From positions 1 to 40,589 of the IMG/VR virus record IMGVR_UViG_2718217867_000004: 40,589 bases of DNA; one strand, given 5' to 3'. Both the position numbers and the translations under genes were made by a program. Each line of letters starts with the position of its first letter. Within the stretch, counting starts at the first letter, position 1. Shown here piece by piece: positions 30,706-39,169 of this stretch. The notes beneath the pieces were generated by a model, which was not told the DNA's origin, made no database searches, and saw only the letters and a program-made list of their open reading frames with translations. The DNA comes from a virus. Its lineage: Duplodnaviria > Heunggongvirae > Uroviricota > Caudoviricetes.

Positions 30706-31019
30706 TCCTGAACCCTCCTGTCGAAATAAACATAGTTATTCACCGTGCGCAGCGGCATTTCGAATTTTTCCGCTATCTCGCGACGTGAAATGCCCTGCTC
30801 ATGTAGCTGTCGTATCACCTCAACGCTGCTCCGGGGCATTTTTACCGACTGGTGAAAATCACCCCGCAACATCAGACTGATACCCAGTTCCCGCGCTTTT
30901 GTTCTTACTGCCGCCTCCGTACGCCCCGTCAGCTTCCCGATGTCTTTCACCCGCATGGTTCCCGCACACTGCCGGAGTATCAGGGTTTCAGCCCTGCACC
31001 ACGTCTTCCGGTTGCCCAC
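30702..31019 (-). CDS. Putative HTH DNA-binding protein (NinH-like C-terminus)
   Basis: Two HTH-like segments (DIGKLTGRTEAAVRTKARELGI; ISRREIAEKFEMPLRTVNNYV); start uncertain (GTG at 31019, GTG at 31106 or ATG at 30956). Confidence 0.45.
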   Translation of the reverse strand: MGNRKTWCRAETLILRQCAGTMRVKDIGKLTGRTEAAVRTKARELGISLMLRGDFHQSVKMPRSSVEVIRQLHEQGISRREIAEKFEMPLRTVNNYVYFDRRVQE

Positions 31020-31021
31020 TG

Positions 31022-31768
31022 CTATTGTTCTCCGGTAGCTGCAATCTTCCGGAGAATATCCCTGTGTTTGTTCAGCTCCCGCAGCGCAGCACAGACACGC
31101 TCCCACTTCCGGATATCACTTTTCACCCTACGCAGCTCGCGGTTTGCCTGTCGCAGCGATGGCAGAACCAGATTATCCACTCGCTTTTCCGTTACCGATG
31201 ACTGCGACTGTACAATGTCCGCCACAGTTTCTGTTTTAATATCTTCCTGTGCTGCAGCTTCCTGTACTGGTAACGCAACACCTGCTGGCTGAGGAAAGGC
31301 TTTACCATTGGTTTCCGCTACCGATTCAACTTTCGGCTCTACTGGTAAATTATCACCCGGTATGCAGTAACGAAATTTACCGTTCTGATTTACGCGAATC
31401 AGGCGTCCTTTGCTGATTGCCATAGCCAGCGTTGAAGCCACTTTGCGTGATGTGGTACCGAACAACGTAGCCAGTTCATCCGCAGTTAGTGGACCACGTT
31501 GTTCAATCGTCGCGGTTAAATCGCACTCCGGTATTTTCGCGACTGTTGCCGTGGTGGTTTCTTCCGGCGGTTCTGCCTGCTCTGGCTGTTCCTGCTGAGC
31601 GTTGTTATCAGCCACACGCCAGGTGTATACGCTTTTATCAACGAAACCAGCCTTTTTCAGCTCCCACAGCTCGTTCAGCACTTCTTCACGACTGATATCA
31701 AGTCGCGCAGCCAGCTCTACCGACGTGGCTTTGCCCATTGCTTTCAGTGCGTCAAAAACGGTTTCCAT
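31022..31768 (-). CDS. Winged-helix-like protein (DUF1627-like), hypothetical
   Basis: Start placed at [13 protein letters not shown] (GGGAGA SD); central Pro/Glu/Gln-rich linker; sits between the DnaC-like gene and the nin region. A 1-nt mismatch between my stop reading and the track coordinates is unresolved. Confidence 0.55.
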
Positions 31769-31790
31769 AAAATTTTTCTCCCGGTAAAAA

Positions 31791-32537
31791 TTACTTCTCT
31801 GTTCCTGGCTGACCGACATTCGAACGCCAGCTTTCCCAGTTAAAATTCACCCAGCGACCACCGTTCATGGTCATGCGGTCCATCACTCGCTCTCCCAGAA
31901 GGGTGCTCATCGCGGTATGGTTCAGGTTCGTCAGCATCCCGACACTGCGCATCGAAGCCGTTCTGCGGTCGACTATCTGGTTCAGAGTGACCTGTTCATT
32001 GCGTGTATCACGCTGCATGCCAATCTCATCCAGAACCAGCAGGTCAACGTTGCACAATCCCTGCAAAAACTTTTCACCCGAGTTTTTGTTGTCGTAGCTG
32101 CCGTGCAACGCCAGCATCACATCAGCCACAGTGACCACAATCACACTCCGCCCCTTCGCCAGAAGATGGTTGCCGATGGCTGCCGCAAGGTGATTTTTTC
32201 CGGTACCCGGCTTACCGCTGAACACGAAATTTGTGCACCTGGTCATAAGTTCGTCCGCGATGGATTTTGCATGACTCAGCGCGTGGCGTTGCCCGTCGTT
32301 CTGCACCCGGTAATTCGCAAACGAACACTTCTGGTGCAACGGCTGGATACCCGAACGGTTCAGAATTTTTTCCGCATGAATCTTGTTATTCAGGCGATTA
32401 ATCTCCTCACTACGTTTTCGCCCTTCAGCAAGCCACCACTCGTACCACTCTTCCCGTGTCCGGTACGGCGCGGTTACATGCTGTGGGGCCAGTCTGCGGA
32501 TACGTTCAAGAACACCGCTTGCCGCAATATTTTTCAT
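31791..32537 (-). CDS. DnaC-like helicase loader (IstB-type AAA+ ATPase)
   Basis: 248 aa; Walker [18 protein letters not shown] and Walker B LLVLDEIG. Confidence 0.9.
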
Positions 32538-32543
32538 GGTCAG

Positions 32544-33350
32544 TTACCCCCTGAAGCCTGGCGGGATCGCACTATCCGGTAACGAGACGGTGTTAACCTG
32601 TCGGAGTAACGTCTCAGGTCGAACACCTTTCGGCGCGAACAAGCCCTGGTATTCATTGGCGATGCTGTGTCGAATCACCTGCTCAGGTGAAAAACCCTGC
32701 TGGCGGAATTTTTCCAGCTCCCGTATCGCCCCGTTAGCGCCCTGCTCCGTTCGAATCGGTTTTCGCAATGCCTGGCGAAATTCAACCCACTCACGCCAAA
32801 GCGAGACAGAAATCCAGTTCGGCAAAGCAATATCCAGAGGGTCAAACTTTTTGACACCTCGATTCCCCCGGGGGGGATTTAGGGGGGGATCTGTTTTTAG
32901 ATCTTTATCTGTATCTTTATTAGTTGCCTTTGTGTTCGCGCCATGTTCAAACACCATTTCAACGTCTGTTTGAACACCTGTTAAATTTCGCTCGTGTTTT
33001 GTTTGAGCATATGATTCCTTTCTGTTTCTCCTGGCCTGAACAGATGCTTTTCCCGCAGCCGATTTTTTTATTGATTTTTCCCTGACTGATGCCAGATCTT
33101 CCTCAATCCGAAGGTGCATCCATTCATCGCCGTTATCGCAAAAAAACTCCCGCAAGGATGGTTCAACATCAGCCCATCGCTCGTTAGTCAGACGGGCAAT
33201 TTTTGCCAGCCTGTTTTTAGGTATTGGCTTTCCTGTTTGCCAGTAATTGAACATCAGTAACAAATACGCACCATGCTCCTCTGCTGACAAATGCATGGTG
33301 TCGGCCAGGTAATCAGCTATGTACAGTTGCATGTATGGTAATGCGGCCAT
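32544..33350 (-). CDS. Replication initiation protein (YdaU-like N-terminus, DnaT-like C-terminal domain)
   Basis: 268 aa; N-terminus MAALPYMQLYIADYLADTMHLSAEEHGAYLLLMFNYWQ, basic linker, C-terminal DnaT-like region; sits upstream of the DnaC-like gene as in the Rac ydaU-ydaV arrangement. Confidence 0.75.
   Translation of the reverse strand: MAALPYMQLYIADYLADTMHLSAEEHGAYLLLMFNYWQTGKPIPKNRLAKIARLTNERWADVEPSLREFFCDNGDEWMHLRIEEDLASVREKSIKKSAAGKASVQARRNRKESYAQTKHERNLTGVQTDVEMVFEHGANTKATNKDTDKDLKTDPPLNPPRGNRGVKKFDPLDIALPNWISVSLWREWVEFRQALRKPIRTEQGANGAIRELEKFRQQGFSPEQVIRHSIANEYQGLFAPKGVRPETLLRQVNTVSLPDSAIPPGFRG
32841..32940. promoter_or_regulatory. Candidate replication origin inside the initiator gene
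   Basis: GTCAAACTTTTTGAC palindrome, CCCCCGGGGGGG and GGGGGGG tracts, two GATCT units (Dam sites) and an A/T-rich stretch, all within the linker-coding region. Confidence 0.4.
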
Positions 33351-33420
33351 AATTGCCTCTTCTGATACCGAATCTCTTAATCACGCACTACCGGAAGCGA
33401 TCCAGTATAAATATTGCCAG

Positions 33421-33845
33421 TCAATGCACCGCCACGGCATTTCCTGCCGGACCACCGCGATTCATCTGGTCGAACAGAACGATCGCTGATGCAACGAACT
33501 CATCGATATCTTTCACCAGCCGATCCCGTCGCTCGACAATCTCCCGGTGATACTCCGAACTGTGACTACGCATTCGGGCCACCAGCGGTGGCGGCATTGC
33601 CTTTTCGATCGCTGGTAACAACGCCTGAATTTTTTAACCGCATCAGGAGTATCTTTCTCCACCCAGCGGAAAATTTTCTGAGTATTGCGAGCCAGGGCTT
33701 CTGGGTGTGAATCGTCGTACAGTTCCGGAAACGTCATACCCAGCTCAAAATAAGCCCGGGTTATTTCAGCCGCCGGAACTTTTTCACCGTCCGGATACGC
33801 CCAGGCATTCATCGCCATGCGGATGTGTTCATGCTTGATTTTCAT
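33421..33845 (-). pseudogene. YdaT-like gene split by a frameshift in an A6 tract
   Basis: N-terminal ORF (33513-33845, MKIKHEHI...) and a +1-frame ORF (33421-33621) overlap; inserting one A in the AAAAAA run at about 33628-33633 joins them into a single ORF of about 140 aa. Confidence 0.55.
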
Positions 33846-34057
33846 GAATCATTCTTTCCTTCGTTCGAGGTGTTATCCTGCTTCTTGTAAAGTTCTGGAT
33901 TGTATTTCAATTCACCGTTAGTAATTTCATCCAGCTCCATTGCGCGAAGTTTGGGAATAACTGCTTTCCACCGCACAACAGCCACATGTGAAATTCCAAG
34001 AGCCTCAGCTACTAGTCGCTTTTTTTTGAAATAGCGCAGAACATCATCTTTGAACAT
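33842..34057 (-). CDS. Cro-like HTH regulator (YdaS/Cro family)
   Basis: 71 aa with HTH KKKRLVAEALGISHVAVVRWK; divergent from cI across an operator-bearing gap; ATGA overlap with the YdaT-like gene. Confidence 0.8.
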   Translation of the reverse strand: MFKDDVLRYFKKKRLVAEALGISHVAVVRWKAVIPKLRAMELDEITNGELKYNPELYKKQDNTSNEGKNDS

Positions 34058-34085
34058 AAAACTCTCCTGTTATTTCGAACAAGAG

Positions 34086-34150
34086 GGTAACAATAGTTAC
34101 ATAATGATGTCAACCATAGTAACATTACTTGGTAGTAACATTGGTTACAT
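34086..34150. promoter_or_regulatory. OR-like operator cluster between cro and cI
   Basis: Three sites with inverted GTAAC/GTTAC half-sites (GGTAACAATAGTTAC, GTAACATTACTTGG, GTAACATTGGTTAC) in the divergent promoter region. Confidence 0.6.
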
Positions 34151-34823
34151 GAAAAACACTATCAGCGAACGTATTCGGAATCGTCGAAAAGACGTTGGAC
34201 TAACTCAACAGCAGGTTGCGAAAGCAATCGGCATATCTCGCGTATCCGTAACAAAATGGGAAAATGGCTCTTCAAAACCTGACGGTGAGAATTTGCATCT
34301 GCTGTCAAAATTGCTTTCCAAATCTCCTGAATGGATTCTTTATGGAAAGGATGGTCACGATAAAACCGACGATCTGCGTCTGAATCAGCACCTTTACATT
34401 AGTGACAACATCGCCCGGTTGCCCGTTTTAACGTGGGAACAGGCTGGTTATTGGGATATGAGTTGCCCAGTAACCGAGATTCCTGGTATTAAGAATTGGG
34501 TTGATGTCATGACAAAAACCGCTGAAAACTCTTTTTTATTGCGCGTTGAGGGAGATGCGATGACGAACTCTAACGGCCTCCCAACCATCCCCGACGGATC
34601 TACCGTGCTGATCACTCCATGCTCAAGTAACATTAGAGAACTGGTGGGAAAAATAATCTTAATCCAATTGGAAGGAACGCCGAACGTAACACTAAAAAAA
34701 GTTGCGATTGACGGACCAAACATCTATCTGCTGTCACTGAATCCGCTTTACAAACCCATTGAACTGAATGGTGGTTACACTATTAAAGGTAAAGTTTCAC
34801 AAATACATCAATATTTAGACTGA
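34149..34823 (+). CDS. cI-like repressor (N-terminal HTH, C-terminal S24 LexA-like peptidase domain)
   Basis: HTH (LTQQQVAKAIGISRVSVTKWENG) and S24 autocleavage domain (VEGDAMT...KGK); start chosen at MKNTIS just after the operators; the track ORF begins at 34050. Confidence 0.85.
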   Translation: MKNTISERIRNRRKDVGLTQQQVAKAIGISRVSVTKWENGSSKPDGENLHLLSKLLSKSPEWILYGKDGHDKTDDLRLNQHLYISDNIARLPVLTWEQAGYWDMSCPVTEIPGIKNWVDVMTKTAENSFLLRVEGDAMTNSNGLPTIPDGSTVLITPCSSNIRELVGKIILIQLEGTPNVTLKKVAIDGPNIYLLSLNPLYKPIELNGGYTIKGKVSQIHQYLD

Positions 34824-36697: not shown

Positions 36698-39169
36698 ATG
36701 AGTAAAGTCTTTATTTGCGCCGCCATTCCGGACGAACAGGCAATAAAGGAAGAAGGTGCAGTTGCTGTAGCCACTGCCATTGAAGCCGGTGACGAACGCC
36801 GCGCCCGTGCCAAATTTACCTGGCAATTCCTGGAGCAATATCCGGCTGCTCAGGACTGCGCTTATAAATTTCTTGTCTGCGAGGATAAACCCGGCATGCC
36901 CCGCCCTGCTATCGACTCCTGGGATACCGAATATATGCAGGAAAACCGCTGGGATGAGGAATCCGCTTCCTTTATTCCGGTCGAACCAGAATCCGATCCG
37001 ATGAACGTCAATTTTGACAAGCTGTCCCTTGAAGTACAGAACGCGGTCCTGGTTAAGTTCGGTACATGTGAAAACATCACCGTTGATATGGTGATTAGTG
37101 CTCAGGAATTACTGCAGGAAGACATGGCAACATTCGATGGGCATATCGTTGAGGCATTGATGAAAATGCCTGAAGTTAACGTCATGTATTCAGAGCTTAA
37201 GCTGCTCGCCATCGGGTGGGTTAAACATAAATGTAAGCCGGGTGCAAAATGGCCTGAGATCCAGACAGAATTACGCACCTGGAAAAAACGTCGCGAAGCC
37301 GAACGCAAAGAAACCGGGAAATACATGTCTGTTGTTGATCTTGCCCGCGCCAGAGTCAACCGGCAGAACACTGAAAACTCAGTAGCGAAAATCCCCCCAG
37401 CCACTGCCACCATTCGTCGCGAATACAAGCAGACATGGAAAACACTGGATGATGAACTGGCCTACGCTCTGTGGCCTGATGACATTGATGCCGGAAACAT
37501 TGACGGCAGCATCCATCGCTGGGCAAAAAATGAAGTTATCGACAACGACCGCGAAGACTGGAAGCGTATCTCGGCATCAATGCGCAAACAGCCTGATGCC
37601 CTTCGCTACGACCGCCAGACTATTTTTGGCCTTGTCCGTGAACGTCCGATCGACATTCACAAAGACCCTGTGGCACTGAACAAATACATTACTGAATACC
37701 TGACTACAAAGGGCGTGTTTGAAGATGAAGGAACAAATCAGAGCGCAACTGATACTCTCTCGTCGCCAGTACCAGAAACTGATGCAGTGGAAACGGCAAT
37801 TCCGGACAACGAAAAAACCGAATGCAAAGTGGAAGTCGAACCATCTGTAGAGCGTGAGGGGCCGTTCTACTTCCTCTTCACAGATAAAGATGGCGAAAAA
37901 TATGGTCGTGCAAACAAACTTTCTGGTCTGAATAAGGCGCTGACTGCAGGGGCTACTGAAATCACGAAAGAAGAATATTTTGCCCGCAAAAACGGTACAT
38001 ACTCAGGCTCACAACAAAATACTGGTGCATCTGACACGACCGCACAACCAGAGCCGGTAAAAGTTACCGCTGAAGAAGTAAACAAAATTATGCAGGCAGC
38101 CAATATCAGCCAGCCTGACGCCGATAAGTTGCTTGCTGCCTCTCGCGGAGAATTTGTTGCAGGGATTAGCGACCCGAATGATCCGAAATGGGTGAAGGGG
38201 ATTGAAACCCGCGATTCTGTAAACCAGAACCAGCAAGAATCGGAACAGAACGACCAAAAAGCGGAACAAAACAGCCCAAATGCGTTACAAAACGAGCCAG
38301 AAACGAAACAATCCGAACCAGTAGCGCAACAGGAACCGGAAAAAGTCTGCACCGCCTGCGGTCAGAGCTGTGGCGGCAACTGCCCTGATTGTGGCGCGGT
38401 GATGGGCGACGCAACATACCAGGAAACATTCGATGAAGAGAATCAGGTTGAAGTTCAGGAAAATGATCCGGAGGAAATGGAAGGCGCTGAACATCCACAC
38501 AAGGAGAACCCTGGCGGCAATCAGCATCACGCCAGCGATAATAAAACTGGCGAGGCGACAGATCCCTTAATTGAGGTGAACGGTCATCATAAGCTCACAT
38601 CCACCAGCAGAGCGGGGATTCATCTGATGATCGACCTTGAAACCATGGGAAAAAATCCCGATGCCCCGATTATCTCAATAGGCGCAATATTTTTCGATCC
38701 ACAAACCGGAGATATGGGACCGGAATTTAGCAAGACCATCGATCTGGATACTGCTGGCGGAGTCATTGATCGTGACGTCATTAAATGGTGGCTGAAGCAA
38801 TCACGTGAGGCGCAATCTGCCATTCTGACCGATGAAATTCCGTTAGATGATGCACTACTGCAATTGCGGGAATTTATCGACGAAAACTCCGGTGAATTTT
38901 TTGTTCAGGTCTGGGGAAATGGAGCCAACTTCGACAACGTGATTTTACGCCGTTCATATAAACGGCAGGGTATCCCCTGCCCGTGGCGCTACTACAACGA
39001 TCGCGATGTACGCACAATCATTGAACTGGGAAAATCCATAGACTTCGATGCCAGGACGCCTATTCAATTCGAAGGCATACGCCACAATGCGCTGGATGAT
39101 GCCCGTCACCAGGCGAAATACGTTTCAGCAATCTGGCAAAAACTGATCCCGAATCAGTCTGATTTTTAA
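36698..39169 (+). CDS. Large multidomain protein with C-terminal DEDDh 3'-5' exonuclease domain (YdfE-like)
   Basis: 823 aa; C-terminal IDLETMG (Exo I), WGNGANFD (Exo II), RHNALDDARH (Exo III); central Cys4 cluster CTACGQSCGGNCPDCG; acidic/Gln-rich linkers; position corresponds to ydfE in Qin. Confidence 0.85.
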   Translation: MSKVFICAAIPDEQAIKEEGAVAVATAIEAGDERRARAKFTWQFLEQYPAAQDCAYKFLVCEDKPGMPRPAIDSWDTEYMQENRWDEESASFIPVEPESDPMNVNFDKLSLEVQNAVLVKFGTCENITVDMVISAQELLQEDMATFDGHIVEALMKMPEVNVMYSELKLLAIGWVKHKCKPGAKWPEIQTELRTWKKRREAERKETGKYMSVVDLARARVNRQNTENSVAKIPPATATIRREYKQTWKTLDDELAYALWPDDIDAGNIDGSIHRWAKNEVIDNDREDWKRISASMRKQPDALRYDRQTIFGLVRERPIDIHKDPVALNKYITEYLTTKGVFEDEGTNQSATDTLSSPVPETDAVETAIPDNEKTECKVEVEPSVEREGPFYFLFTDKDGEKYGRANKLSGLNKALTAGATEITKEEYFARKNGTYSGSQQNTGASDTTAQPEPVKVTAEEVNKIMQAANISQPDADKLLAASRGEFVAGISDPNDPKWVKGIETRDSVNQNQQESEQNDQKAEQNSPNALQNEPETKQSEPVAQQEPEKVCTACGQSCGGNCPDCGAVMGDATYQETFDEENQVEVQENDPEEMEGAEHPHKENPGGNQHHASDNKTGEATDPLIEVNGHHKLTSTSRAGIHLMIDLETMGKNPDAPIISIGAIFFDPQTGDMGPEFSKTIDLDTAGGVIDRDVIKWWLKQSREAQSAILTDEIPLDDALLQLREFIDENSGEFFVQVWGNGANFDNVILRRSYKRQGIPCPWRYYNDRDVRTIIELGKSIDFDARTPIQFEGIRHNALDDARHQAKYVSAIWQKLIPNQSDF

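Follow-up and report, generated by a model that had tools for sequence, protein, structure and literature searches.

A putative lambda-style replication origin inside ydaU, a DUF1376-family initiator gene of a Rac-like prophage

The location of a replication origin inside the gene for its own initiator is a well-known arrangement. The closest described system is ori-lambda, found in gene O of lambda and Stx phages, which combines iterons with an A/T-rich tract midway along the gene; for unwinding, two iterons and the A/T-rich region suffice (PMC7466680). It has also been reported that the Rac prophage carries an active origin, oriJ (PMC3945230), which is credited to Potrykus et al. (2000) in PMC11014345. 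Here, a stretch of 40,589 nucleotides (nt) from a tailed virus (Caudoviricetes; IMG/VR record IMGVR_UViG_2718217867_000004, hereafter the window) was analyzed, in which an initial annotation had proposed an origin-like tract at 32841-32940, within the linker-coding part of the initiator gene ydaU and in the manner of lambda O. The central idea is upheld by gene order, linker position, DNA-level constraint and a lambda-like layout, whereas the list of features and the boundaries given for the tract are not. It is suggested, with a probability of roughly 70%, that ydaU contains a lambda-style origin, of which the tract would represent the unwinding half and the G/C boundary. This claim rests on sequence anatomy, DNA-level constraint, covariation between repeats and N-terminal initiator modules, and a positional match to lambda; binding, unwinding, helicase loading and origin activity at the ydaU site would follow by analogy.

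The correspondence with lambda is close in position. By using the iterons from the annotated lambda record (NC_001416), four iterons could be placed at nt 349-433 of gene O, in frames 0, 2, 2 and 1, and the least stable 40-mer of O lies at nt 436-475 (-44.4 kcal/mol) and encodes DTKDTITKEKRKDY. In ydaU, the repeats occupy gene nt 342-407 and the least stable 40-mer nt 426-465 (-45.1 kcal/mol), encoding TNKDTDKDLKTD. Thus, in both systems the origin, known or putative, lies in the middle of the initiator gene and in its linker-coding part, dyad-symmetric sites (predicted binding sites in the case of ydaU) occur in different reading frames with the least stable A/T-rich stretch directly downstream, and the A-rich coding strand yields a D/T/K-rich peptide. 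In addition, the sites are linked to the N-terminal half of the initiator and the loader to its C-terminal half. On the other hand, the ydaU product belongs to the DUF1376/YdaU family and not to Phage_rep_O, and its loader is DnaC-like instead of P. The ydaU sites are 9-10 bp long (TGTTCAAACA or CGTTSAACG) and spaced at 11-bp multiples, whereas those of lambda are unrelated 18-19 bp ATCCCTCAAAACGAGGGA units. Moreover, ydaU has a second cluster approximately 170-180 bp upstream, within the part coding for the DNA-binding domain, and a downstream (GATACA)n repeat that is common to several initiator families. Ori-lambda proper, with an O homologue and its iterons, was rejected as a match, the only Pfam match being DUF1376 and the 10-mers being unrelated to lambda iterons.

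With regard to oriJ, the ydaU gene of the window lies in a Rac-type replication region (ydaS-ydaT-ydaU-ydaV) with the same architecture as in Escherichia coli K-12. Its DNA is 96.8% identical to ydaU of the K-12 Rac prophage, and flanking genes are also shared (locus L001; loci are numbered with the prefix L). The window differs in being a separate Rac-like prophage with other immunity genes and a change in one repeat (B1, see below). The site is probably oriJ. A literature search on ydaU, ydaV and DUF1376 found no sequence-level description of an origin.

Two sets of relatives were used to examine the repeats. The first searches, of proteins and viral sequences, gave only relatives with 94-100% identity, which were used for allele variation only in an alignment of 40 rows (the window and 39 distinct related allele sequences, K-12 included). 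A divergent set of about 30 relatives with 40-65% protein identity was assembled from a profile search and from a scan in which each species was represented by a single genome; its members came from Citrobacter, Enterobacter, Kluyvera, Pantoea, Serratia, Rahnella, Klebsiella, Pseudomonas, Propionivibrio and one Methylococcaceae genome. The repeat of the window, TGTTCAAACA, is a 10-bp near-palindrome with the family consensus CGTTSAACG, and its copies fall into two clusters (Table 1). Cluster B (repeats B1 to B3) encodes YdaU residues 114-136, and K-12 ydaU has three exact copies of TGTTCAAACA within 66 bp. The T-to-C change at 33007 in B1 is unique to the window among the 40 rows and may weaken this site in the window prophage. 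Four variable sites were found among alleles in the 13-bp spacer between B2 and B3, while B2 and B3 themselves are invariant. Divergent relatives contain 2-4 copies of CGTTCAACG or CGTTGAACG after a basic AGKAS..ARK stretch. In cluster A, a single core copy (GTTGAAC, 33161-33167) is present in the window, and the family consensus is made up of three 11-bp units, AACGAcCGTTGG-acgga-CGTTGAACGgtCGTTGAACGAGTT; conservation is punctate with an 11-bp period, and that of third codon positions is raised. The conserved N-[DE]-R-W..V-E..L.E-F-F stretch of DUF1376 (around residues 56-70) coincides with this cluster, and part of the Pfam DUF1376 signal may reflect DNA constraint.

Across 24 diverse loci (~100 kb), the GTTSAAC/GTTCAAA core showed a density of 8.7/kb in gene nt 280-480 against 0.55/kb elsewhere, a 16-fold difference. 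In a subset of 22 loci, the core forms two clusters, at approximately nt 183-194 and nt 342-400, and repeats are spaced by 11, 22 or 33 bp. All three frames (0, 1 and 2) contain core copies, which are translated as RST, VQR, PLN and VER, and it is therefore the DNA rather than a peptide that is conserved. Codon usage points in the same direction: at amino-acid-conserved columns, the major-codon fraction was 0.57 up to residue 104 (2-6 codons used) and 0.91 beyond it (Mann-Whitney P = 3e-6, an optimistic value), where Arg (CGT), Ser (TCA), Val (GTT), Asn and Asp are each encoded by one codon only. The pattern of codons and repeats is punctate, periodic and independent of reading frame. A side observation concerns L089 and L090 (E. 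coli ECMA0423 and Shigella flexneri SFBU1023), whose ydaU turns unrelated right after the third B repeat (..VFEHDAGFAPIF..), at about codon 138; these genes are thus broken at the proposed origin, for which an insertion or deletion may be responsible.

Directly after the repeats, the relatives carry ACT AAT AAA (GAT ACA)n GAT CTA AAA GA, i.e. a (GATACA)n-GATCTAAAAGA element, the window version of which reads ACT AAT AAA GAT ACA GAT AAA GAT CTA AAA ACA GAT on the coding strand. The A/T-rich stretch of the initial annotation is indeed present and above chance: the GC content of 32891-32925 is 23%, and 32886-32925 is the least stable 40-mer in ydaU by nearest-neighbour energies, reaches the 99.6th percentile of the window by instability, and is equaled within the replication module (31000-34100) only by the cI/cro operator region. 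In the Thr-Asp (TD) tract that the element encodes, Asp is GAT in 79/79 cases (132/294 elsewhere), Thr is ACA in 46/62, and Leu is the rare CTA in 13/14 (18/324 elsewhere, enterobacterial loci). The same codon pattern was found in high-GC Pseudomonas, where GAC is otherwise preferred. The element consists of single-codon columns and is among the most DNA-constrained parts of the protein family. Among close alleles, only 4 variable sites were detected in 32865-32937 against 10.4 expected. At least 120 viral contigs contain an exact 17-mer of (GATACA)n-GATCTAAAAGA, in combination with several types of initiator; 80 of these contigs were read, and in 58 of them the 17-mer lies in a DUF1376 initiator.

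Further evidence comes from initiators with other N-terminal modules. Four N-module types have four repeat motifs at equivalent positions, and all of them end in the same (GATACA)n-GATCTAAAAGA element; initiator-specific sites beside a common element are the signature that would be expected of an origin. The N-module of L083 and L084 contains GGTAACGC-N3-5-GCGTTAC at gene nt ~158-183 and 367-409, matching both cluster positions, and this motif is kept in relatives of 41-44% identity. No homology between DUF1376 and the L083-type N-module was detected by hhalign, and the two may share a fold. In the L191 type, both positions are occupied by GTAACGCAGG units. GTTSAAC is absent from DUF1376 variants that contain a T5orf172-like insertion, and CTAC(N0-1)GTAG repeats are found in its place; the exception is L085, which owes its retained GTTGAAC copy of cluster A to a Rac-type sequence over the first 84 residues. 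The same CTAC/GTAG repeats were found with a non-DUF1376 initiator that has the same kind of insertion (L253), and the inserted domain may set origin specificity. T5orf172 (GIY-YIG-like) insertions after the winged-helix domain were observed in L085 (1511-2749), L111, L113, L115, L116, L118 and L253. A further locus, L180 (NZ_CP080357.1, from PLSDB), the only match to a small plasmid record, was rejected as evidence for an autonomous plasmid, since it is a linear 4.6-kb fragment of a Klebsiella lambdoid prophage (cII, replication protein, ATPase, ren).

Table 1. Positions of the candidate origin elements, the mosaic joint and the surrounding genes in the window
Feature	Start	End	Strand	Description
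Cluster A	33147	33185	-	Inside the DUF1376-coding part; motif histogram peak at gene nt 150-200
Repeat B1, TGCTCAAACA	33000	33009	-	TGTTCAAACA in all 39 related alleles, K-12 included
Repeat B2, TGTTCAAACA	32967	32976	-	Invariant in the 40-row alignment
Repeat B3, TGTTCAAACA inverted	32944	32953	+	13 bp from B2; invariant among alleles
A/T-rich element	32889	32924		Window version of (GATACA)n-GATCTAAAAGA; proposed unwinding element; contains both GATC sites
Mosaic joint	32896	32907		Homology breakpoints of E. coli relatives; query end points 353/364 and 362
G/C-rich boundary	32863	32888		Plus strand TTCCCCCGGGGGGGATTTAGGGGGGG; encodes PPLNPPRGN, start of the C-terminal module
Short palindrome, GTCAAActtTTTGAC	32841	32855		GTCAAA-ctt-TTTGAC; probably incidental
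ydaU	32544	33350	-	DUF1376-family replication initiator, 268 aa; winged-helix N-domain, basic helix, disordered linker, helical C-domain, DnaT-like tail
ydaV	31791	32537	-	DnaC-like helicase loader directly 3' of the initiator gene; Pfam IstB_IS21 and Bac_DnaA

The flagged tract itself encodes YdaU residues 137-170, within a linker (residues 124-170) predicted to be disordered by AlphaFold, and its plus strand from 32841 reads GTCAAActtTTTGAC ACCTCGATT CCCCCGGGGGGG ATTTA GGGGGGG ATCTGTTTTTAGATCTTTATCTGTATCTTTATTAG TTGCC... All features listed for it by the initial annotation are present where they had been placed, and they differ in what they contribute. The boundaries proved too narrow, as the candidate initiator-binding repeats fall outside, at 32944-33009 and 33161-33167. 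The palindrome had been counted as part of the origin and is at chance level, with 122 palindromes of 6-bp arms and short loop in the window; close alleles vary at 4 sites within it (2.1 expected), and the corresponding site is not palindromic in L083/L084. The same can be said of the Dam sites. GATCT units do occur at 32888 and 32900, but their spacing is not unusual in the window (3 GATC pairs no more than 12 bp apart) and GATC is not kept in relatives: several of them read GATATAAAA or GAACTAAAA instead, and it is absent at the site in Pseudomonas L109, L114 and L117 and in Propionivibrio L112.

The poly-C/poly-G tracts are present and above chance, and they form part of the C-terminal module. 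C5G7 lies at 32865-32876 and a second G7 at 32882-32888; the two G7 runs, 12 bp apart, are the sole homopolymer runs of at least 7 in the 40.6 kb. Pro codons in the runs are CCC in 4/4 cases, against 10% CCC in neighbouring genes. Over three N-module contexts, CCC accounts for 10/11 Pro codons, and the rare codon GGG is used for Gly. A relative with ~59% protein identity reads ACC CCC CTT AAT CCC CCC AAG GGG AAT. The peptide PLNPP(K/R/Q)G is kept at the start of the C-module behind four different N-modules, and PLNPPxG occurs in P0123, P0135 and P0263. Some DNA-level constraint on the run is likely, and, judged by these contexts, the run travels with the C-terminal module and not with the initiator-specific part. 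It could serve as a bubble boundary, as a second binding site, or as a G-quadruplex or i-motif. In this connection, GGGGGGGATTTAGGGGGGG at 32870-32888 (plus strand) fits G3N1G3N5G3N1G3 and is the only plus-strand G-quadruplex motif in the window; it is on the ydaU template strand and adjoins the least stable duplex stretch. Furthermore, ATCCCCCCCTAAATCCCCCCCGGGGGAAT (32863-32890), with TCCCC/GGGGA arms and an ATCCCC..TAAA start, is reminiscent of the lambda iterons ATCCCCTAAAACGAGGGA (lambda 39034-39118, L301). This is a resemblance only; an O-type origin that arrived with the C-module could have left the run behind as a relic.

The tract also coincides with a mosaic joint. L082 and L085 share only the 5' part of ydaU with the window, down to 32896 or 32907, followed by another DnaT-like C-part and a lambda-P-like loader gene, and L083 and L084 share only the 3' part, up to 32905, with an unrelated N-part and the DnaC-like ydaV kept. 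Judging from the breakpoints in these mosaic classes, the tract is the place where N- and C-terminal modules have been exchanged, and the type of loader, DnaC-like or lambda-P-like, varies together with the C-terminal module. The alternative C-module of L082/L085 resembles the DnaT core (PIGKFPM..W.P..DF..RAALWG), with the lambda-P-like gene next to it, and phage initiators seem to borrow DnaT parts for loader recruitment. It could be argued that the conserved DNA is mainly a recombination cassette at the module boundary, used for such swaps and without a role in initiation, given that the E. coli breakpoints lie exactly at 32896-32907 and that (GATACA)n-GATCTAAAAGA forms the connection between at least four types of N-module and several types of C-module. 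This explanation is considered unlikely. It does not account for the type-specific dyad repeats, their 11-bp phasing, their occurrence in three frames, the second cluster ~170-180 bp away, or a melting minimum at the gene position of the lambda A/T-rich tract, and the punctate rather than block-like conservation speaks against recent block transfer. The two roles are mutually compatible: with an origin in the linker-coding part of the gene, the same conserved DNA becomes the joint for swaps of the origin-specific N-module and the loader-specific C-module.

Dyad repeats within an operon can serve as operators, and the repeats might be initiator sites for autoregulation, operon roadblocking or handcuffing/incompatibility control, with the true origin elsewhere. 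Two clusters ~170 bp apart could loop together in this way, and an operator or control role for cluster A is possible. As an account of the whole locus, such a function is highly unlikely, considering that no other repeat cluster or comparable A/T-rich stretch was found in the replication module and that repeats abutting the least stable segment are the canonical origin layout, as in lambda. Pairing between clusters A and B, as a cruciform or a long-range RNA contact, was rejected because the spacers are not complementary.

A third explanation would be that the region has no function as DNA and only encodes a low-complexity T/D/K/P-rich linker, the repeats being peptide repeats. The predicted disorder of the linker, the chance level of the palindrome and the GATC pair, and the conservation of PLNPPxG as a peptide motif are all in line with this. 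However, relatives of 40-65% identity, high-GC hosts included, share fixed synonymous codons, a single DNA motif gives different peptides depending on which of the three frames it occupies, and the rare CCC and CTA codons are used almost exclusively, so that this explanation is strongly disfavoured and has very little chance of being correct. C7 runs are slippage-prone in principle, and by reading of the sequence a +1 slip at the first of the two runs in the coding strand (codons 155-161) would meet a TAA immediately and a -1 slip a stop after 14 codons, either of which would give a protein of the N-module only; yet such an RNA-level element, whether mRNA structure or frameshifting, is hardly credible, since the fold of 32841-33201 is no more stable than shuffled sequences (z = -0.79), no Rfam match was found at E <= 1, all 76 of the 76 full-length matches among related loci are 807 nt without any length variation, and CGTTSAACG units cannot form hairpins.

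If ydaU does contain an origin, transcription from the cro-side promoter would produce YdaU, whose N-terminal module (the winged-helix domain and the basic helix) would bind the dyad repeats B1, B2 and B3 as well as the GTTGAAC copy of cluster A, at spacings of roughly 11-bp multiples. The resulting nucleoprotein complex would melt the adjoining least stable stretch (32889-32924), the bubble being bounded by the G/C run, and the DnaT-like C-domain of YdaU would then bring in the DnaC-like YdaV and host DnaB.

Several points weigh against this interpretation. The assignment of origin function was made from sequence data. The window carries just three or four repeat copies, one of which (B1) is altered, and cluster A is degenerate in the Rac lineage. 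No DnaA box was found between 32500 and 33400 and no integration host factor site near the tract, which fits a lambda-like origin, yet means that one potential independent marker is missing. Specificity may not reside in the winged-helix domain, because the T5orf172 variants change the repeats while the DUF1376 domain stays. Recombination, and not origin function, could be part of the reason why the shared cassette at the module joint is maintained. The codon tests treat kindred sequences as independent and tandem GATACA units copy one another, which makes the P values optimistic. Finally, a literature search for the position of oriJ gave nothing at sequence level to set beside the site.

A broader proposal may be put forward only tentatively. 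According to it, (GATACA)n-GATCTAAAAGA would be a portable, initiator-independent cassette for unwinding and helicase loading, used by at least four N-module types, each initiator having its own phased two-cluster sites. Part of the DUF1376 conservation (NxRW..VE..L.EFF) would be origin DNA, the cassette would act as the recombination joint between origin and loader specificity, and G7-ATTTA-G7 could be a second site tied to the C-module. The cassette ranges from Enterobacteria to Pseudomonas and Methylococcaceae.

A literature search found no earlier description of the YdaU-family anatomy, the two-cluster sites or the (GATACA)n cassette. Three aspects of the candidate origin thus appear to be new, namely the base-level anatomy for the DUF1376/YdaU family, the arrangement of 9-10-bp dyad sites into two clusters with spacings in multiples of 11 bp (one cluster falling within the coding sequence of the DNA-binding domain), and the (GATACA)n cassette common to several initiator types. 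If the origin assignment is true, the origin of Rac-type prophages (probably oriJ) would be located and its anatomy defined at base level, and there would be a working origin model for DUF1376, a very large family of initiators whose function is unknown, with 17,333 cluster representatives at E <= 0.001. The odd TDTDTD motif and part of the conservation attributed to the DUF1376 protein would be explained as origin DNA, and origin and helicase-loader specificity would be recombined at one shared cassette; directly testable predictions would follow. An origin embedded in a gene can also mislead protein-family and selection models.

Other replication systems were also compared. Plasmid iterons are usually 17-22 bp direct repeats located outside the rep gene, often with DnaA boxes. 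Iteron plasmid origins resemble ydaU in their winged-helix initiators (including the RepA structure 4pta) and in helically phased short repeats beside an A/T-rich unwinding region, whereas the ydaU sites are shorter, palindromic, located inside the coding sequence and without a nearby DnaA box. The oriC 13-mer (GATCTnTTnTTTT) was verified in E. coli genomes. The plus strand of the tract contains three 12-bp units starting with (G/T)ATCT (GATCTGTTTTTA / GATCTTTATCTG / TATCTTTATTAG), which show a resemblance only, and an oriC-type unwinding element was rejected on the basis of a single match with no more than 2 mismatches in the tract, a window count equal to chance and the absence of a DnaA box. 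The replication modules of Eru-type Stx phages were rejected as a match because they contain different proteins.

The gene that harbours the candidate origin encodes a DUF1376 protein with clear support: Pfam PF07120 matches residues 5-87 with 91.3 bits (cut-off 30.1, E = 5e-26) and is the sole Pfam match of the open reading frame, while PHROG 678 ('O-like') matches residues 91-242 only, i.e. the linker and the C-terminal part. An AlphaFold model built on alignment A1 (mean predicted local distance difference test score, pLDDT, 82) comprises a compact winged-helix N-domain (residues 1-79), a long basic helix (80-123), the disordered linker and a helical C-domain (171-235), and confidence is lowest at residues 131-154 (pLDDT < 50). 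A PDB sequence search with the N-domain gave no meaningful match. The C-terminal tail VNTVSLPDSAIPPGFRG (residues 252-268; window 32544-32594) nearly matches the tail of E. coli DnaT, RDVNTVSEPDSQIPPGFRG (PDB 2ru8, 9zbt). Relatives of ydaU were found in 1505 of 5426 complete E. coli genomes.

The neighbouring genes place ydaU in the early-right operon of a Rac-like lambdoid prophage of E. coli. On the minus strand, genes for a P22-Cro-like protein (33842-34057) and a YdaT/cII-like protein (33513-33845) precede the DUF1376 gene, and those for the DnaC-like ATPase and a DUF1627 protein follow it; an S24-peptidase cI-type repressor gene is divergent (34050-34823). The ydaV product is matched by NCBIfam PRK12377 with 476 bits, as well as by DnaC and PHROG 50. 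Upstream of ydaU (window 33351-33512), the cII/YdaT-like and repressor genes differ from racR-ydaS-ydaT of K-12, which indicates a different immunity region on the same replication module. The K-12 annotation of ydaU is longer by 17 residues at the N-terminus (285 aa; L001 4808-4858), and the open reading frame of the window begins at the conserved MAALPYMQ.

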